Origin: a phage
DNA length: 64,000 nt
Sequence record: OZ335958.1
Direction: 5' to 3' (one strand)
Below the pieces are notes generated by a model. The model was given only the letters and a program-made list of their open reading frames with translations, searched no databases and was not told the origin of the DNA. This document shows positions 5,130-21,957 of this stretch, one piece after another. A program made the translations under genes and the position numbers. Position 1 is the first letter of the stretch. Each line of letters opens with the position of its first letter.

Positions 5130-6330
5130 ATTTTGTAATAATGTCAAACTGTTCTTTAAAGCAGAAGCTTGAATCTTGATGCTGATACAAAAATTCATAA
5201 GCTTTTTCGCGTTCACGGTCATAAAGAGCTCGGTCAGATGACAGTTCTTTAATACGTTCAAATGTTGATTCCATGTCATTTTCATCAAACCAAACGATAC
5301 CGCTATCATGTGAAATTAACGGAGTATTATCAACACGGAATTTTAAATTTTCACCAGTAGATTTCCAAAATACTGGAATTGTTCCACATGCACCAAGCTC
5401 GAGATGAGTATATTCTAAAGAACGCTGTAGATATTTTTTGTCCAACTTACTCAGCTGATAACCAAATCCGGATTTACTCATGCGTTCAAGCATTTCGCTA
5501 TTTACATAACGGTCAAGAATTTGCGTTGGCAAATTAGGAGCAATTTTAATTTGGTCTACTTGATGAAGACGATAATACTCATATGGAATTCCTTTTTCTT
5601 TAATAGGAATGAACGCTGGAGAACGTTCCAGACCTTCCATAATAGTACTTAGCCCAGCAGGTTTAAGATGTTTTTCGTGAAAATCAAACATCTGATAAAA
5701 ACCTTTCCATGTAGTCGTACGACCAATCCAACGGTTGACATTCATGTTAATTTCAGAAACATCTTTCCAGTAGGTTGATCGAACCTTAGCAATATCCATA
5801 GGAGGCTGAAAGTTGTATACAGTCGGTGCTTCTTCAATATCGTCAAACAGTGAAACAGTTTCTGGATACCATTCTTTCATCAGAACTTTATTAAAATCAC
5901 CATTATCAGAATGACTAAAAATAACATCAGCTCGGCGAACAGTTTCTTCTAATCCCAAATTTCGGCGCAAAGAAAGAGAAGAATGGTCATGTTGATAAAC
6001 TACAACACGAACCGAAGGTTTAATGTTATCAATAATTTTTTTATAGTTATTAATAGTGTCTTCTTCGACTGAAGTAGCAGGAACTGAATTGATAATTAGA
6101 ATATCACAATCATTTACCAGCTTAAGTGTTTTATCGTATTCTTTTGCCAATAAAACCGGAATTGAAAATGATTTATAATCATGCGCGCAATTACGGGTAA
6201 ATGATTTATCTTTAGCATAAACCAAAGTTACTTCATGACCATTTTTAATAAACCAATCACGTTGCTCAAGAGAAAATTTAGTTACGCCACAACCTTCAAG
6301 ACCTCGAGCCATAAAAATGCATACTTTCAT
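5128..6330 (-). CDS. a-gt: DNA alpha-glucosyltransferase (glucosylates hydroxymethylcytosine)
   Basis: 400 aa ORF MKVCIFMARGLEGCGVTKFSLEQRDWFIKNGHEVTLVYAKDKSF; matches T4 AGT as recalled. Confidence 0.88.
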   Translation of the reverse strand: MKVCIFMARGLEGCGVTKFSLEQRDWFIKNGHEVTLVYAKDKSFTRNCAHDYKSFSIPVLLAKEYDKTLKLVNDCDILIINSVPATSVEEDTINNYKKIIDNIKPSVRVVVYQHDHSSLSLRRNLGLEETVRRADVIFSHSDNGDFNKVLMKEWYPETVSLFDDIEEAPTVYNFQPPMDIAKVRSTYWKDVSEINMNVNRWIGRTTTWKGFYQMFDFHEKHLKPAGLSTIMEGLERSPAFIPIKEKGIPYEYYRLHQVDQIKIAPNLPTQILDRYVNSEMLERMSKSGFGYQLSKLDKKYLQRSLEYTHLELGACGTIPVFWKSTGENLKFRVDNTPLISHDSGIVWFDENDMESTFERIKELSSDRALYDREREKAYEFLYQHQDSSFCFKEQFDIITK

Positions 6331-6382
6331 TTAATATCCTCATTGTTTTGGTTTATTTTACCAAAAATTTATAAAGCAATAT

Positions 6383-11140: not shown

Positions 11141-12954
11141 TGGTGTTTAACCCTATGCATGATTTCTTTATTTTTGCCGAGATTAAATCCGCGTTCGTTC
11201 GGATTTCCCAAATAACCACAAGTTCTTCTTATTGTGTTCATCTTTTTAGGATCAGTTTCTCCACAAATAGAACAAACAAATCCGTTTTCAGTAGGAGTCA
11301 TTTCATGTGTACTTCCACACGTAAAACATTTATCTACTGGCATATTAACACCAAAATAATCTAAATGTTGTGCAGCATAATCCCATACAGCCTCAAGACC
11401 TTTTAGGTTATTTTTCATATCAGGAAGTTCAACATAAGAAATGTGACCACCTGTCGCAATGAAATGATATGGTGCTTCTCGAGAAATCTTTTCAAACGGA
11501 GTAATATTTTCTTCTACTGAAACGTGGAAACTATTAGTGTACCATCCTTTATCAGTAACATCTTTTACACTTCCATATTTCTCAGTATCAAGTTTACAGA
11601 AGCGATAGCACAGATTTTCAGCAGGTGTAGAATACAAACTAAAAGCAAAACCGGTTCTTTCAGTCCACTGTTTAAGACGAGCATTCATTTTAGTTAAAAT
11701 TTCCTGTCCAATATCACGACCGACAAGAATATTCAATTCGTGAATACCAATGTATCCTAAGGACACTGAACTTCTACCGTTTTTAAATAACTCAATTATG
11801 TCGTCATCAGGTTTAAGACGAACCCCGAATGCACCTTCTTGGTAAAGAATAGGAGCAACAATCGCTTTAACTCCTTTTAAGGAACTAATTCTACACATCA
11901 AAGCTTCAAAACACAAATCCATTCGTTCATTGAACAATTCGGCAAATTTCTGTTCATTGAATTGTGTTCCAATATAAGAATCTAACGCAATACGAGGAAG
12001 ATTCAGTGTTACAACACCAAGATTATTACGTCCATCAAGAATTTCATTACCAGTCGAATCTTTCCATACGCTTAAGAAACTACGGCAACCCATTGGAGAA
12101 ACAGGAATAGATGAACCGGTGATAGCTTTATTGTTCTTAGCTGAAATAATATCAGGATACATTCTTTTGCTTGCACACTCTAAAGCAAGCTGCTTAATAT
12201 CATAGTTCGGATCATCTTTATAAAGATTAACACCTTCTTCAACGAACATAACAAGTTTAGGGAAAATAGGAGTTATCCCATCGCGACCAAGGCCTTTAAT
12301 ACGATTTTTCAGAATTGCTTTCTGAATCATTCGTTCAGTCCAGTCAGTTCCAGTACCAAATGTAATTGTTACAAAAGGCGTTTGTCCGTTTGAACTAAAG
12401 AGAGTATTTACTTCATATTCATAAGCTTGGAATGCATCGTATACGTCTTTTTCTGTTTTAGATTGGGCGTAATTCAACGCATCAGCGATTTGCCATTTTT
12501 CTGCATCCTCAATATGTTTTGCATAGGTGCGTTTAACATAAGGAGAAAGTACTTTATCTACATTCGCAAAAGTCGTTCCACCATATTGATGAGAAGCAAC
12601 CTGCGCAGTAATTTGTGCCATAATTGCAGTAGCAACGCCGATTGATTTAGGAGTTTCAATCTGCGCATTACCGAGCTTAAATCCATTCTCAAGCATTCCT
12701 TTTAAATCTACTAAACAGCAATTAGTAAATGGAAGAGCAGGTGAATAATCAATATCATGGAAATGAATAATTCCGCTTTCATGCGCTTTCATAATAAAAG
12801 ACGGGACCATATTTTTGGCAATGTGTTTAGACACAATACCAGCCATAAGGTCCCGTTGAGTTGGAAAAACACGAGAATCTTTATTAGCATTCTCGTTTAA
12901 AAGGTCTTTATTAGTTTTATGAATCAATCCTTCAATTTCTTTTTCAATTGTCAT
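11137..12954 (-). CDS. nrdD: Anaerobic ribonucleoside-triphosphate reductase NrdD (glycyl radical enzyme), uninterrupted
   Basis: 605 aa ORF with C-terminal glycyl-radical motif RRTCGYLG and C-x2-C zinc ribbon; no intron interruption seen. Confidence 0.9.
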   Translation of the reverse strand: MTIEKEIEGLIHKTNKDLLNENANKDSRVFPTQRDLMAGIVSKHIAKNMVPSFIMKAHESGIIHFHDIDYSPALPFTNCCLVDLKGMLENGFKLGNAQIETPKSIGVATAIMAQITAQVASHQYGGTTFANVDKVLSPYVKRTYAKHIEDAEKWQIADALNYAQSKTEKDVYDAFQAYEYEVNTLFSSNGQTPFVTITFGTGTDWTERMIQKAILKNRIKGLGRDGITPIFPKLVMFVEEGVNLYKDDPNYDIKQLALECASKRMYPDIISAKNNKAITGSSIPVSPMGCRSFLSVWKDSTGNEILDGRNNLGVVTLNLPRIALDSYIGTQFNEQKFAELFNERMDLCFEALMCRISSLKGVKAIVAPILYQEGAFGVRLKPDDDIIELFKNGRSSVSLGYIGIHELNILVGRDIGQEILTKMNARLKQWTERTGFAFSLYSTPAENLCYRFCKLDTEKYGSVKDVTDKGWYTNSFHVSVEENITPFEKISREAPYHFIATGGHISYVELPDMKNNLKGLEAVWDYAAQHLDYFGVNMPVDKCFTCGSTHEMTPTENGFVCSICGETDPKKMNTIRRTCGYLGNPNERGFNLGKNKEIMHRVKHQ

Positions 12955-13424
12955 TTTAAACTCTTTCTAAGCTGCTTCTTAAATGAAGCTATTAATTGTG
13001 TTTTAGTGTCAGATTCATTATATTCAAATCCTCTTTGAAGCATCTCAGCCATCATTTCCTCTTTTCCTAAACGAGAAAATTCCTTTGATTTATCTCCAAC
13101 GAAGTTAGGGTGAATATTATTTTGGGTGTAATCGGATTTTAAATAAGTAAGTAAATTTTCTAACCATTCAAGATAATCAACGCCTTGTCCCTTTAAGCCA
13201 GAACGATTAAATTTGTGCTTCATTTGACCTTCCGCTGCATTGCAAAGATTACAGAGCAATCCACGTACCTTTCCTGCTTTTGGTCCATTTAATTCATGGT
13301 CATGGTCAAGGTGATTAGCTTGAACATCAGGATTTAGTTCTCGTTGGCAAATTAAGCATTTACCGTTTTGTGCGTTATAAAATTTTTGTTTTTCTTCTTT
13401 ATATAATTTGCCAGTCAATAACAT
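12951..13424 (-). CDS. 49: Endonuclease VII (Holliday junction resolvase) gp49
   Basis: 157 aa, zinc-binding CLICQ...CNLCN and HLDHDHE motif; size matches T4 endo VII. Confidence 0.85.
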   Translation of the reverse strand: MLLTGKLYKEEKQKFYNAQNGKCLICQRELNPDVQANHLDHDHELNGPKAGKVRGLLCNLCNAAEGQMKHKFNRSGLKGQGVDYLEWLENLLTYLKSDYTQNNIHPNFVGDKSKEFSRLGKEEMMAEMLQRGFEYNESDTKTQLIASFKKQLRKSLK

Positions 13425-13465
13425 AATAAACCCTTACCTTAAATAGATAAGGGTATTTATTATTT

Positions 13466-14211: not shown

Positions 14212-14559
14212 TTATAGCGTAATCCATTCTCGTACTGTCTGAGTTACTACACGTTCACGGGGCTCGACTAGTTCAACAGTCGGAACTGCATAATACCAGT
14301 CAGAATGATAAGAACCTGAGCGAGATTCATTTACAGACACATGAACGTTATGTTTTGGACTAAAATAAATGCACTGCCGGTATTGACATTTGCCGTCTTG
14401 TACCCAATCTTCTATTTCGATAGGTTTAAGATAATCTGAAAAATCGAAATCATAATTTTCTGAAAATGCATCATGGTCTTCAATGATTTCACCCAGAACT
14501 GCATCAACATCGTAAATCATATTTACCCCAGTTTGACCATACAATCGCCATATTTCCAT
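14212..14559 (-). CDS. Hypothetical protein
   Basis: 115 aa ORF. Confidence 0.5.
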   Translation of the reverse strand: MEIWRLYGQTGVNMIYDVDAVLGEIIEDHDAFSENYDFDFSDYLKPIEIEDWVQDGKCQYRQCIYFSPKHNVHVSVNESRSGSYHSDWYYAVPTVELVEPRERVVTQTVREWITL

Positions 14560-14999: not shown

Positions 15000-15257
15000 T
15001 TATTCCTTAATTCCTAGTACTTGTTTAAAAGTCTCGTCGTAATCAAGACTTTGGCCCGTTTGTTCTTTATGTTTGTATATAATATCACTTATTTCTGATA
15101 GCATATTTTTATATGAACGAGTTAAAGCAGATTTAAGCACGCTGTATCTATCAGGAAATTTACCGTGTTCATTATAATACGCTATTGCTAATTCACGGAC
15201 TGCCTTTTCAGCAATCTCCATATATTCTTTACGCTTGGTCATTTTCTTCTCGGTCAA
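15000..15257 (-). CDS. Hypothetical protein
   Basis: 85 aa ORF. Confidence 0.5.
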
Positions 15258-15546
15258 ATCGGTGTTTGCAATGACGGCATTTATAACGAAGATTACTAGT
15301 CTGCCAATGAACTAATTGTACCTGTTCAGTACCGCATTCAGGACAATTAGGAACGTTTTTAGAAGCCCTTTCGCGACGTTCAACCATAGCCATAATGGCA
15401 TCCCAAGCTGGAGGTTTAAAATCTAAATCGTCACAACCATGAATCTTTCCACGCATTTCCAGATCGTCTTCTTCACCAGCCATAATAATTTTAATTAGAC
15501 TGGAATTACTTGAAGCTGCAATATCTTCTAATAGACGCTTTTTCAT
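15229..15546 (-). CDS. Hypothetical zinc-ribbon protein
   Basis: 105 aa with CPECG...CRHCKH. Confidence 0.5.
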
Positions 15547-16472
15547 TTCAGCACCTCAATAGCATTACGTAAACCATTTGCTTTTGCATTAAGAGCTTTT
15601 AACAATTTGGTGTGTTCGGCAATCTGGGCTTCAACTTCAATCAAACGAGCATTGAGATATTCACGTTCTTCGCTCAAGTTATCAATCTTTTCTACTTTAG
15701 GCTCTTTTACAACTGTCTTATATGTATTAGGGTTCTTCAGTTTAATTAGAATGCGTGAACTGTATAACATTGAACCATTATCTTCGGTTTCGTCATACAT
15801 TTCTACTACGTCCATGATTTTTAACATCATGCGAAGTTTATAAGACAACGAACGAATAGTTTTGTTGTGCTTATTAATTTCTTTAGAGTTCATGGTGCCG
15901 AGATTACGTGAGTAATAATAAGGAACCTGGATATTAATTAATACTGATGAACCACCTGGCTTGTGTGTTACTTCATCAGCAATAACCCAGTCCTTAACAT
16001 GAACTGTATTTGTACGGTCATCACCCGCGGTAAACAGTTTGCGAGCATGCTTAAAAAGCATATTCACTTGGGTATTGAATTGACAAGCAAATTTATCAGC
16101 AAATTTAGTTTCAGGAATGGTAGATAGCCAATCAGCTAAATGGGTCTTTTTAACATCGTTAACAATAGTAAATTCAACCAAATCGGTTATAGATGTCGCA
16201 GATTTAATGAAGCTCGGCTTCATAAAGTTTTTAATGTTATCACGAGCTACAGTAGAAGATAACATACGAGAACGTTTAAACCATTCAAGCAAATTGCCTA
16301 ATGAATGAGAATAGGCGTTCTGAGTATCTTTACAGATATGATTTTCCTGGCCAACATATTGAAGGAAATCACGAAGAATATTATTGATTACTGCTCTGTG
16401 TCCGATCTGATAATTACGATGTTTAGTAATAAGACTGTCAAAATAATCAATATAATGTTTACGAGTTTTCAT
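15543..16472 (-). CDS. Paralog-array member 1: uncharacterised protein with C-terminal coiled coil
   Basis: 309 aa, N-terminus MKTRKHYIDYF, C-terminal heptad-rich [42 protein letters not shown]. Confidence 0.6.
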   Translation of the reverse strand: MKTRKHYIDYFDSLITKHRNYQIGHRAVINNILRDFLQYVGQENHICKDTQNAYSHSLGNLLEWFKRSRMLSSTVARDNIKNFMKPSFIKSATSITDLVEFTIVNDVKKTHLADWLSTIPETKFADKFACQFNTQVNMLFKHARKLFTAGDDRTNTVHVKDWVIADEVTHKPGGSSVLINIQVPYYYSRNLGTMNSKEINKHNKTIRSLSYKLRMMLKIMDVVEMYDETEDNGSMLYSSRILIKLKNPNTYKTVVKEPKVEKIDNLSEEREYLNARLIEVEAQIAEHTKLLKALNAKANGLRNAIEVLK

Positions 16473-16524
16473 GTTCTTCTCACTTGGTTAATGATTTATG
16501 CTCCGAGCCATCCTTGGCTTTAAA

Positions 16525-17526
16525 TTACTTAATTAATTGTAAAGCTTGTTCAAGACGATCTAGGCGATTAACAGATTCTTCCCAAATCCTTTTAGCCTGC
16601 TCATAATCTTTCTGCGCTTTATTAGAAATTTCTAGAACTTCTTTATAAGCTTTTTCTAGTGCAATAACTTCTGGACGAATTTCTACCGGTTCAGGTGAAT
16701 CGTCAAGACATTCCATTAGTTCCTCAAGGGTAGTTTCTTCTTTAGGAGTATTCACAATTTCATCACATTTTTGTTGGTAAATTTCTTTATCAGTCGGTGA
16801 GTACGCACACTTTACTTCACGGAGACTAACTACAATTTTATATCCTTCCCAACCGCATATATTCTTAAAAGGATAAGTATGAATATTTTCTACTGTTTCC
16901 ATACAAAGTAATGCGGTCTCTAACTGACGAGTTATATCGCTAGCAATTGAGAAAAATTTATTAATGTTCTTTTGATTAGCTTCTGGTGTAAAAAATTCAT
17001 AATTCACAAAAATAGCTGCTTTATTTTTATCAAGCTCATATTCTTTTATGATAATCATATCAGAAGCCCAAGGATGGATTTGACGATAATCACCATAGCA
17101 TAATTTAGAAGCTGATTTTAGAAGTTGCTTCTTGAAAAGTCTGAAATTACTAATCCAACGACGAGTAAAAATATTCTCAGGGTCTTCTTTATTATTAAGA
17201 TGATAAGAATTAACATCACCGAACCAATTATATCCTACTACATCTTTAGTTCGTTTAATTTCTTTCCCAAATTTACTAAGAATATCTCTGTTGACTAAGT
17301 ATGAAAGAAGACGAGAACCTTTAAAGGTTTCCTTAATATCATCTTTATATTCGCAACTAGAAATTTTATGAACTTCATGAATAAATTTGTCGGAAGAAAC
17401 AATACTTGCATCAGTATTGTTGAGCCACTGATTGATAATAGAAAGAACACTATTCTGACTAGACATAGATTTAACTTTATCATCAATAACGCTATTGAAT
17501 GATTTGATATATTCGTTACGAGTCAT
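16525..17526 (-). CDS. Paralog-array member 2 (start at MTRNEY with GAGGAG Shine-Dalgarno)
   Basis: ORF-track 16525-17556 trimmed to Met 11; C-terminal coiled coil EVIALEKAYKEVLEISNKAQKDYEQAKRIWEESVNRLDRLEQ. Confidence 0.6.
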   Translation of the reverse strand: MTRNEYIKSFNSVIDDKVKSMSSQNSVLSIINQWLNNTDASIVSSDKFIHEVHKISSCEYKDDIKETFKGSRLLSYLVNRDILSKFGKEIKRTKDVVGYNWFGDVNSYHLNNKEDPENIFTRRWISNFRLFKKQLLKSASKLCYGDYRQIHPWASDMIIIKEYELDKNKAAIFVNYEFFTPEANQKNINKFFSIASDITRQLETALLCMETVENIHTYPFKNICGWEGYKIVVSLREVKCAYSPTDKEIYQQKCDEIVNTPKEETTLEELMECLDDSPEPVEIRPEVIALEKAYKEVLEISNKAQKDYEQAKRIWEESVNRLDRLEQALQLIK

Positions 17527-17549
17527 ATTAATCTCCTCAGTAGAAAGTA

Positions 17550-17584
17550 AGAACATTATACCACATCCTTGTGGCGAAGTAAAC
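17550..17584 (-). promoter_or_regulatory. T4-type early promoter candidate
   Basis: gaacattataccac...gtaaac on the plus strand, i.e. GTTTAC -35 and TATAAT-like -10 for minus-strand transcription. Confidence 0.4.
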
Positions 17585-18609
17585 TAGTTTAGTGCATTTA
17601 GTGCATTGTTCAGTTTAGAACGTTGCTTCGTGAGATTTTTGACTTTTTCTTGAGCTTTTTCTAGTATCTTTTCAGCTTCTAACACTTCATTAGTTGCTTT
17701 AATGAGTTCATCATCTACTGCCTTGATAGACTTCTCAATCGCATCTGCATGCCATTTTTCAACAGGTTTAAGACTCGGATTTTCAACAGGAAGAAAATTC
17801 GCTTTATTGAATTTCCATGCATCCTTATTACCTGAACTATACATCCAAAATTTAGGATCGTTTGATGAGTAATTGGATAAATTTAAGTTATAGTTATCTT
17901 GTACTTCCTGCTTTTTCTCTTGCGGGATTTCGTCCTTTCTCAAAAAATCATATTTAAATGAAACGATCATATCAAGTTCATACGTTGTTGTATGTTCCCA
18001 ATTTCGCTCAAAATGAGGTAAAATCTTAGACTGAACCGCGGCAACTACATCCATATACTTAAATGCTTCTGTCAACTGTGATTTAAGGCATTCACAAATT
18101 GAAAGAGAATTTTTTGTATTAGGTTTAAAGCTAATTCGTGCAGTTCTGTTATTTTCTTTTAATGGTCTTACTTCCATCTGAAGAGTATAACCATCAAATT
18201 TCAGATTCTTTAAGTTAATATCAGAACCTTTTAATCGACTCGCAATTGATAAAATTTGTTTTAATTGTTTACGGAATAGAGCAATAAATCTCCATTCAAT
18301 ACGATAATGATTTGGATTGAAAAATCCAGATGATAAATCGACCTTACTTTGACCAACGCCTTGAACAAATAGAGGATTTTTATAATCAATAGTTTTACAG
18401 AAATCGGTGAGCTGCTCACGAGCAGTCATTTGTGTAATATACCCCGCTTTACTAAAATGACGTAACCATTCACTGCTATTCATATATTTAAAGTGAATAT
18501 CACTATTAACTTTATCAGGGTCTAAATTATTTTGACACAAAAATGTCATAACATCACGAGTATAGCTGGCATTACGAACCATATCTTCAATTTGAGAACG
18601 AGTTTTCAT
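17584..18609 (-). CDS. Paralog-array member 3
   Basis: 341 aa, N-terminus MKTRSQIEDM, C-terminal coiled coil DDELIKATNEVLEAEKILEKAQEKVKNLTKQRSKLNNALNAL. Confidence 0.6.
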   Translation of the reverse strand: MKTRSQIEDMVRNASYTRDVMTFLCQNNLDPDKVNSDIHFKYMNSSEWLRHFSKAGYITQMTAREQLTDFCKTIDYKNPLFVQGVGQSKVDLSSGFFNPNHYRIEWRFIALFRKQLKQILSIASRLKGSDINLKNLKFDGYTLQMEVRPLKENNRTARISFKPNTKNSLSICECLKSQLTEAFKYMDVVAAVQSKILPHFERNWEHTTTYELDMIVSFKYDFLRKDEIPQEKKQEVQDNYNLNLSNYSSNDPKFWMYSSGNKDAWKFNKANFLPVENPSLKPVEKWHADAIEKSIKAVDDELIKATNEVLEAEKILEKAQEKVKNLTKQRSKLNNALNALN

Positions 18610-18617
18610 GGTGTTCC

Positions 18618-19529
18618 TTAAGATTTAAGTAAATCAACAATTTTAATTAACTTTTCACGCTCAGATTTAGCTTTACTACTCAGTCCAGATAGTCTGAAAA
18701 TTTCATCATCATATTGTTGAATGGAAATATTCAGCTCTTCAATCTGTTTATTAAAATAATCAATTTGTTCAGAATGTTTTTCGTTACTACGAACTGGTAC
18801 AGGTTTCGTAGGCAATGTAGTTGAACTGGATTCATCCGGGCGATAAATTAAAATACAACTTGAACCAATAGGGCATTTTGCACCAGATGAATATTCTAAT
18901 GTTCCAGCTTCTTTTAAAACTTCAAAAGCTAAACAGAGATGATGCCCCATATTAACATAATCTGTGGAGCGAGCTCTGATGTAATAATCATCGCCACGAA
19001 TACTAAATTTAAAGCATTTAAGGTCTTCCGTATTATTGGTCTTAAAAATCATTTGTTTATCTAGACCTTTAGCTAATCGAGCGCCTAATGCTAATAATCG
19101 TCGTTGATTTTCCCACAAATCCACAATCATTTGATCGAATGATAATTTCGGCATTAGTCGACCATAAAGGTCATATCCTTTATTATAATTACGAAGGATT
19201 TCACTCGCGTTAATACGAGACAATGCTCCAATTTTATTAAGAGCTTTCATAATGCGATTAGATAAACTCATTCCAGACCCATTTGTTCGCTGTAAATGTT
19301 TTTCTAATCCAAATCCAATATCAACTTTAAACTTATCTAAAATTTCTGCATGAACATCTCTGTCGATAACATTCAAATCCAAAGTTGGGTTAAATCTATG
19401 AAAAAATTTATCTGGCTCTGCACTGCGAAATACAGTCCATTCATTCATCATTTTTTTATTAACTAAAGATTTAATTACTGCATTGACATTATTAATTACT
19501 ACTGACATATTTTCCTCACTCAATTTCAA
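18618..19529 (-). CDS. Paralog-array member 4
   Basis: 303 aa, central segment alignable by eye to members 2 and 3, C-terminal coiled coil QIEELNISIQQYDDEIFRLS...REKLIKIVDLLKS. Confidence 0.55.
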   Translation of the reverse strand: MKLSEENMSVVINNVNAVIKSLVNKKMMNEWTVFRSAEPDKFFHRFNPTLDLNVIDRDVHAEILDKFKVDIGFGLEKHLQRTNGSGMSLSNRIMKALNKIGALSRINASEILRNYNKGYDLYGRLMPKLSFDQMIVDLWENQRRLLALGARLAKGLDKQMIFKTNNTEDLKCFKFSIRGDDYYIRARSTDYVNMGHHLCLAFEVLKEAGTLEYSSGAKCPIGSSCILIYRPDESSSTTLPTKPVPVRSNEKHSEQIDYFNKQIEELNISIQQYDDEIFRLSGLSSKAKSEREKLIKIVDLLKS

Positions 19530-19923
19530 TTTTACTAAATATACAGAATAAGATGGAACAGACTATATAAGCACCACACACAGATTGAACTAATACCATT
19601 CCAAAGAACCAAACAATATTATCAAACAATGTCTGTTTTACGTCGAAAGGACGTAAACTTACAGTAATATTATCACCTTTTTCTATTGAAGAATACATCT
19701 CTGGGGAAATATATTCACTAAATCTATAACCGTCTTTGAGTTCATATACGGCAATAAACGATAAACTAGACCCTTTTCCTTGCGTTCCTGTAATGGTATT
19801 AACTACAGTAACATCATAATCTTTATAATGCATATAATCATTAATTGCGTAATAACCATATGCAATTACTACACATAAACAACATATCAATAAATTCAAT
19901 CTTTTAATTATCAACTGTTTCAT
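19516..19923 (-). CDS. Membrane protein (N- and C-terminal TM helices)
   Basis: 135 aa, LNLLICCLCVVIAYGYYAI and VWFFGMVLVQSVCGAYIVCSILFCIF hydrophobic segments. Confidence 0.5.
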   Translation of the reverse strand: MKQLIIKRLNLLICCLCVVIAYGYYAINDYMHYKDYDVTVVNTITGTQGKGSSLSFIAVYELKDGYRFSEYISPEMYSSIEKGDNITVSLRPFDVKQTLFDNIVWFFGMVLVQSVCGAYIVCSILFCIFSKIEIE

Positions 19924-19978
19924 AATAATCTCAATTAAAAGGGCTTAGAACCATTATACCATCCTTGGTATAAAGCGG

Positions 19979-20506
19979 TTATGCGAGTACCGTCTTTAAC
20001 CGTTCTTCAAACTTCCGAAGAGTATTTTGGCGTTCAGCTCTTTGCTTTTTGTAAGTTTCAATACGCTCTGAAATGAGAGTGTATCGTTCATTTACTGATT
20101 CTTTCATAAAATCAGGAATTTCACGAGAAGCTTTAATCTCGTCAAATTTATCAATAACAGCTTGCTCTTCAGCAATTAAGTTATCATACATTAAAATATC
20201 TTTCTTGATGAACTCAATATCTTCTTGAGTTACACGAGATAATTTAGATGCTTTATCCTTTTTGTACTGTTCGTTAGTATCACGAGACCAGTGTAATGTA
20301 CGATTTTTATTCGTATTTTTGTAAATTTCTACAATACCGATCTCATCAATAATAACGATCCAATTCCAACGGGATTTGTAAATTTGTCCTCCATCAACAG
20401 TGATTTCACCTCCGATTGAGATGTCATTAAAGAACTTGCTTTGTGCCTCAGATTTAAATTTACCATCGTTGTAATTTACCAAGTTGAAAATATCTTTAGC
20501 GTTCAT
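19979..20506 (-). CDS. Hypothetical protein, C-terminal helical/charged
   Basis: 175 aa ORF preceded by an early-promoter motif. Confidence 0.5.
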   Translation of the reverse strand: MNAKDIFNLVNYNDGKFKSEAQSKFFNDISIGGEITVDGGQIYKSRWNWIVIIDEIGIVEIYKNTNKNRTLHWSRDTNEQYKKDKASKLSRVTQEDIEFIKKDILMYDNLIAEEQAVIDKFDEIKASREIPDFMKESVNERYTLISERIETYKKQRAERQNTLRKFEERLKTVLA

Positions 20507-20523
20507 TTTCTGTTCCTCCGTAG

Positions 20524-20564
20524 TTGATAGGGTAATAGTACCACAGAGGAACAGTCTTGTAAAC
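20524..20564 (-). promoter_or_regulatory. T4-type early promoter candidate
   Basis: ttgatagggtaatagtacca...gtaaac (reverse complement GTTTAC ~17 bp TACTATTACCCTATCAA). Confidence 0.45.
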
Positions 20565-20566
20565 CA

Positions 20567-20881
20567 CTAAAAGAAACTTCTTTCACAATTTTTTCCACTG
20601 AACCATGCACTCACTGCTTTCTTAGTCTCAGGAGCAGTGTTATCCATAAACCATTCAAAGGCAGCCTTTTTATGATTCTGGAGGGCTTCTCGGGCTTTAA
20701 TCTGCTCACGGTCTATTAACACTAACATATGAGCCTTTCTTGTCACCATGGGCTTCTTATGATTTTTTGAATACTCCCAGTCATTTGTCCATCGCATTGT
20801 CGTTGCGAACTTAAATACTTCTTCTTTAATTTTAGTTTCGTAAATTTCACGAGCCTTTGAGTATAACATCATTACCTCCAT
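20567..20881 (-). CDS. Hypothetical protein
   Basis: 104 aa ORF. Confidence 0.5.
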   Translation of the reverse strand: MEVMMLYSKAREIYETKIKEEVFKFATTMRWTNDWEYSKNHKKPMVTRKAHMLVLIDREQIKAREALQNHKKAAFEWFMDNTAPETKKAVSAWFSGKNCERSFF

Positions 20882-20970: not shown

Positions 20971-21957
20971 TTATTTCAGAAGAGTAACCTCAGCGATTTC
21001 TTCCCAACCGTTTTTGTCGGTCATAATAAAGTCAGCAAGATAAAGAGCAGTACGCAGTGAAACATTGCGTAAACGATTAACATTAACTTTCATCCATGAT
21101 AATGCTTTATAAGTTTCTTCATCAGAAAGACCGCGCTTTTGCATCATGTCAGTTGAAAGAATAACATCTTCAACCCTGACCATAATTTCTTCATTAGTAT
21201 GAACACCCAAATCCAAATAAACTGAGCGGGACACTAATGCTTGTAAATGTGGAGCAAGTTTAGTACCGCGGTCTAATTCGCGGTCAATGTCAACGTTTGT
21301 GATAAAAACAATCGTTCCTTTAAATTCAAACTCACGCTCAATGCCTTTTTCTTCTAAGTAAGAAGACGCAGTGCTCCAGCAGACTTTACGGGTCTCTCCA
21401 GTGTCCAGAGCGGCTTTTAGAAGATTAAGAATGTCCATATCAGAGAAAACATCCACATCATCAATCAAAAGGACAGAATTCTCTTCACGATTATTCCAAA
21501 GCTGCTCATAAAGACCAATACCAGAGATTTTACCATTAATGCTTTTATATTCAATGTATCCAATATCATTTGCTTTATTCAAAGCTTTATCTAAAGAATA
21601 CGTTTTACCAATACCTGCTGCACCAGAGATAATCAATGAACGAATATTTCCATTAATAATACCATTCGTCATCATTCCCATAACATTAAATCTTTTATTA
21701 ATGCGGGTTTTCATATCTTCATACGATTCTTTAACTTCTTCAACTTTTACACCATCATATGAAATATCTGATTTGTAAACCCAAACACCGCGACGTTTAC
21801 CGTCAATTTCAACAAAAACTTTACCATCTCCTTGTGCATCTACCGGAGCATTATCTGGGAACCATTCGCCTAAGAGCTCAAAAGTTCCAGAGATTTCTTT
21901 ACCGAAGTAGATACCCTTATTGATAGTTACAGTTTTCATTTTATTCTCCAATTTCAC
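20971..21957 (-). CDS. P-loop NTPase (AAA-like ATPase) of unknown function
   Basis: 328 aa; Walker A GAAGIGKT and Walker B LLIDDVD after a ~100 aa N-terminal domain. Confidence 0.6.
   Translation of the reverse strand: MKLENKMKTVTINKGIYFGKEISGTFELLGEWFPDNAPVDAQGDGKVFVEIDGKRRGVWVYKSDISYDGVKVEEVKESYEDMKTRINKRFNVMGMMTNGIINGNIRSLIISGAAGIGKTYSLDKALNKANDIGYIEYKSINGKISGIGLYEQLWNNREENSVLLIDDVDVFSDMDILNLLKAALDTGETRKVCWSTASSYLEEKGIEREFEFKGTIVFITNVDIDRELDRGTKLAPHLQALVSRSVYLDLGVHTNEEIMVRVEDVILSTDMMQKRGLSDEETYKALSWMKVNVNRLRNVSLRTALYLADFIMTDKNGWEEIAEVTLLK

Follow-up and report, generated by a model that had tools for sequence, protein, structure and literature searches.

A 64,000-nt stretch of phage record OZ335958.1 (hereafter the window, to whose alleles all identities refer unless stated) carries four adjacent genes, nrdC.3, nrdC.4, nrdC.5 and nrdC.6, whose protein products we conclude from profile comparison to be one superfamily, with nrdC.3 and nrdC.4 as the closest pair and nrdC.6 as the most distant member. 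The duplications that produced them are old, as each of the four can be matched to orthologues of its own in several genera. The genes have already been catalogued and one of them, nrdC.5, has a published function in overcoming the Dsr1 defence of the bacterial host; what is new is the evidence that the other three are paralogous to this anti-Dsr1 protein. Taking the evidence together, we think it probable, with considerable room for doubt, that these are paralogues of long standing, strongly diverged within a single family of T4-like phages, acting as non-essential early accessory genes in a counter-defence island, and that nrdC.3, nrdC.4 and nrdC.6 are specificity variants of an inhibitor.

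Identity of the locus

Megablast of window positions 15000-20600 against phage genomes matched 744 records, nearly all from Tequatrovirus and with a top identity of 97.5%, which identifies the locus as the nrdC.3-nrdC.4-nrdC.5-nrdC.6 block of a T4-like (Tequatrovirus) phage. Gene names were taken from the annotated loci of ime09, T4 and RB69, which have the same map of open reading frames (ORFs) as the window. The array is set between nrdC.2 and nrdC.7, with strand and order identical to T4; nrdC.2, nrdC.1 and nrdC flank it on one side and nrdC.7 to nrdC.11 on the other. Full-length identity to T4 is 60% for nrdC.3, 91% for nrdC.4, 91% for nrdC.5 and 97% for nrdC.6, and by this per-gene identity and the shared order the four genes are orthologous to T4 nrdC.3-nrdC.6, a homology that an earlier note, made from the window sequence alone, had suspected. 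That note had described four consecutive minus-strand ORFs, and the ORF listing agrees, giving raw ORFs on the minus strand at 15543-16472 (309 amino acids, aa), 16525-17556 (343 aa), 17584-18609 (341 aa) and 18618-19529 (303 aa); the N-termini quoted for three of the proteins (MKTRKHY, MTRNEY and MKTRSQ) had been read correctly. Two of the starts were corrected, as described with the promoter below, which gives the following genes:

15543..16472, minus strand: nrdC.3, 309 aa; ORF named after ime09; phrog_1435 at E 1e-116; closest paralogue nrdC.4
16525..17526, minus strand: nrdC.4, 333 aa, from the likely start at ATG 17526; phrog_1435 at E 3e-164
17584..18609, minus strand: nrdC.5, 341 aa; Pfam DUF7235 (PF23882); phrog_2351 at E 5e-170; orthologue of the T4 anti-Dsr1 gene
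18618..19508, minus strand: nrdC.6, 296 aa, from the likely start at ATG 19508; phrog_2257 at E 2e-151; most divergent member

Paralogy of the four proteins

All-against-all BLASTP detected similarity between nrdC.3 and nrdC.4 (E 5e-8, 26% over 226 aa); the match between nrdC.4 and nrdC.5 was marginal (E 0.06), and nrdC.6 matched none of the other three. Family alignments were assembled from database homologues and from the loci of other T4-like genera, and were compared profile to profile with hhalign. The nrdC.3 and nrdC.4 families aligned with a probability of 98% and the nrdC.4 and nrdC.5 families with 89.6% (E 1.9e-6, 235 columns). By these comparisons nrdC.3 and nrdC.4 are clearly homologous, and nrdC.4 and nrdC.5 are probably so. 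Divergence is nonetheless deep: nrdC.3, nrdC.4 and nrdC.6 share with nrdC.5 at most about 26-29% identity, in partial alignments, or profile-level likeness only.

The placement of nrdC.6 was settled only because related families were merged into super-profiles. A profile of nrdC.6 and its Karamvirus homologues, aligned with a merged profile of the other three families, gave an hhalign score of 63.5 (probability 95%, E 3.7e-8) over 133 columns of the central domain, and over 270 columns end to end at a lower alignment threshold. Reversed profiles scored 16.6-18.2 and 40 block-shuffles scored 22.1 ± 4.7 with a maximum of 39.1, so that the observed score stands about 9 standard deviations above the shuffles; the families of six neighbouring genes matched the super-profile at E values of at least 0.04. 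A family from outside the merged profile was also informative. The single-copy protein of Moonvirus matched the four-family profile with a probability of 96% (E 1.9e-9, 232 columns), and its family fits the merged profile better than either half.

It is very unlikely, in our judgement, that nrdC.6 is instead an unrelated gene that converged on the size and C-terminal coil of its neighbours, which would reduce the array to three paralogues. Two results weigh against a four-way grouping and would be expected if nrdC.6 stood apart: the single-family hhalign comparisons of nrdC.6 with nrdC.3-nrdC.5 are weak and not significant alone (E 0.002-0.19), and a jackhmmer search over the ORFs of all fetched loci merged just nrdC.3 and nrdC.4, leaving the families otherwise unconnected and nrdC.6 unjoined. 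A search of BFVD with the nrdC.6 model, moreover, returned no nrdC.4 or nrdC.5 models. However, those same single-family alignments are co-linear and mutually consistent (position 94 of nrdC.6 pairs with position 49 of nrdC.5, which in turn pairs with position 65 of nrdC.4), the super-profile match lies in the central domain and not in the coil, the independent Moonvirus family prefers the merged profile, and gene order and position are conserved. A Foldseek search with the nrdC.6 model also reached a 308-aa Tequatrovirus protein of NrdC.3-like length (E 8.7e-3, probability 0.84).

The homology of the four proteins lies outside the coiled coil, with pairwise and super-profile E values from 1e-13 to 4e-8 for alignments in the central domain. 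The earlier note had proposed diverged paralogues with a shared architecture, and on this BLASTP, hhalign, the super-profiles with their controls and the Moonvirus family all agree; similarity at the profile level was found, and it exceeds chance. The loosely alignable motifs that the note had picked out (KIMDVVEMYDE and KYMDVVAAVQ among them) fall in columns paired by the profile-profile alignments, in the signature helices described below, and are not chance resemblances.

Common layout and C-terminal coils

The proteins have a common layout over about 300-340 aa, with N-terminal helices, a conserved central alpha/beta core, a variable linker and a C-terminal heptad helix of 45-60 residues. 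The core carries two signature helices, such as W-x3-F-x7-L-x2-A-x-[RK]-L-x2-G-D and L-x3-[LF]-x2-M-[DE]-x-V. Heptads were evaluated with a home-made score whose threshold was the 95th percentile of shuffles. Coil-like C-terminal segments exceeded this threshold at residues 261-309 of nrdC.3, 287-330 of nrdC.4, 283-341 of nrdC.5 (score 1.25 against a shuffle threshold of 0.88) and 250-288 of nrdC.6, and together with AlphaFold2 helices for nrdC.5 and nrdC.6 this upholds the heptad-rich C-terminal coil that had been read in all four proteins. Among six neighbouring proteins only nrdC.10 reached the threshold, in one internal segment (71-98), and none had a C-terminal coil. The segments map to the window as follows:

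15546..15692, minus strand: C-terminal heptad-rich helix of NrdC.3, residues 261-309, by heptad score
16528..16668, minus strand: C-terminal heptad-rich helix of NrdC.4, residues 287-333, ending LEQALQLIK, by heptad score
17587..17763, minus strand: C-terminal heptad-rich helix of NrdC.5, residues 283-341, ending LNNALNALN, by heptad score and AlphaFold2
18621..18782, minus strand: C-terminal helical segment of NrdC.6, residues 250-303 in the numbering of the 303-aa ORF, ending LIKIVDLLKS, by heptad score and AlphaFold2

In the AlphaFold2 model of nrdC.5 the C-terminal helix spans residues 282-340 (59 residues) with a predicted local distance difference test score (pLDDT) of 64-86, and in that of nrdC.6 the C-terminus forms two helices, 250-279 and 285-302. 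The nrdC.6 model as a whole has a pLDDT of 74.6 and a predicted template modelling score of 0.64, and consists of an N-terminal helix, a helical region (52-152), a hairpin-helix-hairpin (173-229), a low-confidence linker and the C-terminal helices (250-302). Searched with Foldseek, it matched only proteins of ~300-335 aa from T4-like phages. The nrdC.5 model, made from a shallow alignment, has an overall pLDDT of 46 and is poor except in its N-terminal helices and C-terminal helix, which weakens the structural side of the argument; with this pLDDT it was rejected for fold searches. The C-terminal coil probably mediates self-association. Of all parts of NrdC.3, the C-terminal helix differs least between allele classes, and a remnant of it is kept in phage ACG-C40.

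Two further observations concern the coil in other records. A 173-aa protein, P0230, has the exact NrdC.5 C-terminal coil on an unrelated N-terminal domain, and this domain found no match by tblastn in the phage genome collection; P0230 may reflect module shuffling at the coil or be an assembly chimera. The 'nrdC.5' of RB69 (5473-6375 of locus L003, 300 aa) has an end that is not coil-like, unlike all other family members, pointing to a 3'-proximal frameshift in record AY303349 or to a genuine truncation.

Family membership

Pfam PF23882 (DUF7235) matched nrdC.5 over positions 1-307 of 307 at 410 bits, where the cut-off is 30, and nrdC.3, nrdC.4 and nrdC.6 fell below that cut-off. In PHROGs each protein is a full-length member of a family of unassigned function: phrog_1435 for nrdC.3 and nrdC.4, phrog_2351 for nrdC.5 and phrog_2257 for nrdC.6. 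Precomputed Pfam labels place nrdC.4 homologues in PF26897 and nrdC.6 homologues in PF26899, likewise without an assigned function. The databases therefore keep three separate families and group only nrdC.3 with nrdC.4; the four-way link is unrecorded in the resources that we queried, and no description of it was found in the literature. Sequence searches of Pfam, PADLOC and PDB gave no informative domain for nrdC.3, nrdC.4 or nrdC.6, and matches to PHL, DUF3905 and BrxC (E 0.008) were set aside as sub-threshold noise. No enzymatic domain or motif was found in the four proteins in Pfam, PHROGs, PADLOC or PDB, in keeping with the earlier remark that they show no catalytic motif.

Searched exhaustively with the nrdC.5 family profile, 1.84 billion representative proteins yielded only 13 significant matches. 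For nrdC.4 and nrdC.6, every named homologue of full length belongs to a T4-like phage genome; a few homologues are filed under bacterial names, in records of ~165-172 kb, the size of a phage genome. As far as these searches reach, the family is confined to T4-like phages and is without a known fold.

Counter-defence activity and genomic context

T4 nrdC.5 overcomes the Dsr1 sirtuin defence (Srikant, Guegler & Laub, eLife 2022, PMC9391042). A T4 deletion mutant fails to plate on E. coli carrying the Dsr1 of ECOR17, and nrdC.5 restores infection (PMC9391042). The sensor of Dsr1 is a TPR domain, common to Avs7, that recognises phage major capsid proteins (2026 preprint, PMC12803255). The window gene is the orthologue of T4 nrdC.5 and has the same flanking genes, and since the two proteins are 91% identical, we infer that the window NrdC.5 shares the anti-Dsr1 activity; the published activity is that of the T4 allele against ECOR17 Dsr1 only, and nrdC.3, nrdC.4 and nrdC.6 are its remote paralogues. 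Our literature search found neither a follow-up on NrdC.5 and Dsr1 nor other names for them beyond the 2022 paper. Because their paralogue nrdC.5 disarms Dsr1, nrdC.3, nrdC.4 and nrdC.6 are good candidates for immune evasion. The earlier note had guessed at a counter-defence role for the whole array, which stands for nrdC.5 through the published work on its T4 orthologue and would extend to the other three genes by kinship.

The surroundings of the array are also consistent with such a role. Three genes nearby have orthologues with reported inhibitory activity: gp49.2 inhibits OLD (PMC13096335), nrdC.1 inhibits Septu, and bas37_0203, a 528-nt orthologue of nrdC.8 according to the supplementary annotation table, inhibits Druantia III (10.1101/2025.11.20.689424). 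In the window they were placed by orthology:

14212-14559: gp49.2 orthologue (anti-OLD)
15000-15242: nrdC.1 orthologue (anti-Septu)
19979-20506: nrdC.8 orthologue (bas37_0203, anti-Druantia III)

Because these orthologues flank the array, the region of roughly 14.0-20.5 kb can be regarded as a counter-defence island. In the HIDEN-SEQ study nrdC.3 to nrdC.6 are non-essential in T4 and Bas37 (10.1101/2025.11.20.689424). Known anti-defence islands of T-even phages (dmd-tifA-adfA; gp49.2, nrdC.1, nrdC.8) are likewise clusters of small, non-essential early genes, each directed at one host system, that differ from one relative to another and are readily deleted or amplified. They consist of unrelated genes, whereas nrdC.3-nrdC.6 are four adjacent copies of one scaffold, which points to specificity diversifying by duplication and not by the acquisition of new genes. 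As a separate matter, nrdC.8 was considered as a further carrier of the coil module of NrdC.3-6 and was ruled out (E 0.11-0.49).

Promoter, early expression and start sites

A promoter scan placed a candidate early promoter directly upstream of nrdC.4:

17555..17583, minus strand: T4 early-type sigma-70 promoter-like site, GTTTAC-N17-TGGTATAAT

The site (17583-17555), a consensus match only, agrees with the consensus at 10/12 positions, has an extended -10 TG and lies inside the 57-nt gap between nrdC.5 and nrdC.4. Together with the description of nrdC.5 as an early gene (PMC9391042), it bears out the assignment of the array to a phage early region. Similar TTTACA-N17-TACTAT sites stand ahead of nrdC.8 (20563-20535) and nrdC.10 (22004-21976).

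The start of nrdC.4 is likely ATG 17526 (333 aa) rather than ATG 17556 (343 aa), which many annotations use, because ATG 17556 falls within the -10 element TGGTATAATG of the promoter-like site. ATG 17526 is preceded by a GAGGAG ribosome-binding site, and homologues begin MTRNEY. Similarly, nrdC.6 likely starts at ATG 19508 (296 aa), which has a GAGG ribosome-binding site, and not at TTG 19529 (303 aa); its homologues begin at M8 of the 303-aa ORF. At the far end of the array, the TGA stop of nrdC.3 overlaps the ATG of nrdC.2 (ATGA).

Copy number, rearrangements and allele classes

Between the conserved anchors nrdC.10 and nrdC the number of family copies varies from 0 to 4 per genome. T4 and the window have four copies. 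RB69 has three (nrdC.6, nrdC.5 and nrdC.3), as do the loci L010-L018 (nrdC.6, nrdC.5 and nrdC.4); Acj61 has two candidates, each weakly supported; Citrobacter phage Moon and Enterobacter phage KMB19 have one each; and no copy was detected between the anchors in Klebsiella phage KPV15. Proteins of 257-268 aa at the equivalent position in KPV15, Karamvirus and Acj61 were considered as members and rejected as unrelated to the NrdC.3-6 family. One protein in that slot, of 257-262 aa, is conserved between KPV15 (12243-13031 of locus L021) and the Karamvirus KMB19 (12683-13456 of locus L022), with E>0.1 against the family, and is perhaps an alternative cargo gene of this variable slot.

Individual copies have also been rearranged. 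A deletion in phage ACG-C40 (6305-6716 of locus L004) runs from about codon 70 of nrdC.5 to the C-terminus of nrdC.3, P0224 is a chimeric nrdC.5/nrdC.3 ORF, a frameshift in a Tequatrovirus contig (L009, 8971-10003) splits nrdC.4 into two ORFs, and only the last 83 aa of nrdC.4 are left in Salmonella phage Manna (H95).

Within Tequatrovirus, nrdC.3 occurs in two deep allele classes, and so in part does nrdC.2 (window 15229-16472). About 358 phage records carry the window type at 90% identity or more, and the type of T4, T2 and T6 is only ~60% identical to it; the window protein is closer to RB69 NrdC.3 (76%) than to that of T4 (60%). Because synonymous divergence reaches 0.65-0.72 at nrdC.2/nrdC.3, against 0.07-0.2 in neighbouring genes, these classes point to an old exchange of alleles by recombination.

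Evolutionary rates

Gene-wide ratios of nonsynonymous to synonymous substitution (dN/dS) were computed for eight Tequatrovirus genomes. They were 0.28, 0.18, 0.19 and 0.10 for nrdC.3, nrdC.4, nrdC.5 and nrdC.6, and 0.03-0.07 for nrdC, nrdC.1, nrdC.8, nrdC.9 and nrdC.10. Identity within the genus was 85-97% for nrdC.4 and 87-97% for nrdC.5, compared to at least 98% for the control nrdC.10, with most variable positions falling in the N-terminal helices and linker, whereas the core and coil have been conserved. No gene-wide positive selection (dN/dS > 1) was seen, all four genes lying below 0.3, and the pattern is therefore not classic hypervariation. Since the genes are intact at these ratios, they are under purifying selection and not decaying.

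The earlier picture of a rapidly diverged, diversifying locus is thus right in part. The four genes evolve faster than five of their neighbours and vary in copy number, but dN/dS is below 1, the duplications are old, the core has changed little and nrdC.6 has stayed nearly identical to its T4 orthologue. The comparisons describe instead an old duplicated family, faster than most of its neighbours, with recombinational exchange of alleles and without gene-wide positive selection.

Proposed mechanism and alternatives

In the mechanism that we propose, NrdC.5 would act stoichiometrically, as a non-enzymatic protein inhibitor produced early in infection. It would bind to Dsr1, with the TPR sensor domain as the most plausible site, ahead of the capsid trigger, which is made late, and the C-terminal coil would provide dimerisation and avidity. 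This logic is modelled on DSAD1 of SPbeta-like phages, which reportedly represses DSR2, a defence protein whose trigger is said to be the tail tube protein. DSAD1 would be a functional analogue, as a phage protein without an enzymatic domain that neutralises a SIR2-NADase defence protein; PDB sequence and structure searches with the window proteins returned no DSAD1 chain, and the likeness is functional only. NrdC.3, NrdC.4 and NrdC.6 would be versions of this inhibitor scaffold with specificities for other immune proteins of the host, a proposal to which we give about an even chance.

Several points weigh against this account. First, nrdC.5 is the only one of the four genes experimentally tied to defence. 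Second, in two Bas37 comparisons and one T4 comparison of the HIDEN-SEQ study the orthologues of nrdC.3-nrdC.6 have log2 fold changes near 0, and they are not among the hits in its main text (10.1101/2025.11.20.689424). Third, the elevated rate is not unique to nrdC.3-nrdC.6, since nrdC.2 and nrdC.7 each have a dN/dS of 0.22. Fourth, dN/dS below 1 and the 97% identity of nrdC.6 to T4 are as compatible with a conserved, housekeeping-like accessory function as with an arms race. Lastly, direct binding of NrdC.5 to Dsr1 is itself drawn by analogy.

A rather unlikely but serious alternative is that NrdC.5 alone serves counter-defence, and that NrdC.3, NrdC.4 and NrdC.6 share its scaffold but modulate a host process during early takeover or are redundant under weak selection. 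It would agree with the finding that orthologues of these three genes show no phenotype on K-12 or clinical isolates in the HIDEN-SEQ comparisons covered (10.1101/2025.11.20.689424), and with the frequent loss, splitting or fusion of the genes, as in ACG-C40, the L009 frameshift, the P0224 chimera and phage Manna; function may also have changed among paralogues that have diverged to at most 26% identity. Yet every one of the paralogues has been preserved intact in hundreds of genomes from several genera, at dN/dS of 0.10-0.28; the block and its immediate surroundings include at least four counter-defence genes; and phenotypes of this kind need hosts with the matching system, while few hosts have been tested.

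It is also conceivable, though we hold it to be unlikely, that NrdC.5 defeats Dsr1 indirectly, either by masking or sequestering the capsid trigger or an assembly intermediate or by changing host physiology in a way that makes the loss of NAD+ harmless, in which case its paralogues might be chaperone-like binders of phage or host proteins. Phages do counter NAD+ depletion indirectly, for example by NARP pathways, coiled-coil proteins are often scaffolds, and the analogy behind direct binding leaves space for such a route. A role in rebuilding NAD+ is, however, unlikely because no enzymatic domain was found in the four proteins, and expression before the capsid protein suits a pre-emptive blockade of the sensor better than masking of the trigger.

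The inhibitor account could be carried further, to a distinctly unlikely version in which NrdC.3-6 are a modular sensor-blocker scaffold and each tandem copy neutralises a different TPR capsid sensor of the Dsr1/Avs7 type, fused to varied effectors. If so, a T-even phage would be equipped against a single class of bacterial immune receptor with a small 'antibody-like' repertoire, which would grow by duplication and whose alleles, such as the two classes of nrdC.3, would be swapped by recombination at the conserved coil.

No lytic phage has been studied more thoroughly than T4, yet its early accessory genes are for the most part functionally unassigned, and paralogy with nrdC.5 makes three orphan T4 genes specific candidates. 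Should the paralogues differ in target, they would show an immune-inhibitor scaffold diversifying by tandem duplication and would aid host-range prediction for therapy phages; should they have no such role, they would set a limit on guilt-by-association in anti-defence islands.

Neighbouring genes

Two observations concern the genes around the array. In GenBank records of relatives, nrdC.1 to nrdC.11 are often labelled 'thioredoxin', a label that spread from the gene-name prefix; nrdC itself encodes the only glutaredoxin/thioredoxin-like protein among the nrdC-prefixed genes. The product of nrdC.10 (20971-21939) is an AAA-type ATPase with sub-threshold Pfam AAA/STAND matches. It is 35-78% identical in Klebsiella, Acinetobacter, Aeromonas and Vibrio phages and in jumbo phages (1312 records), a conservation that contrasts sharply with the adjoining variable genes.

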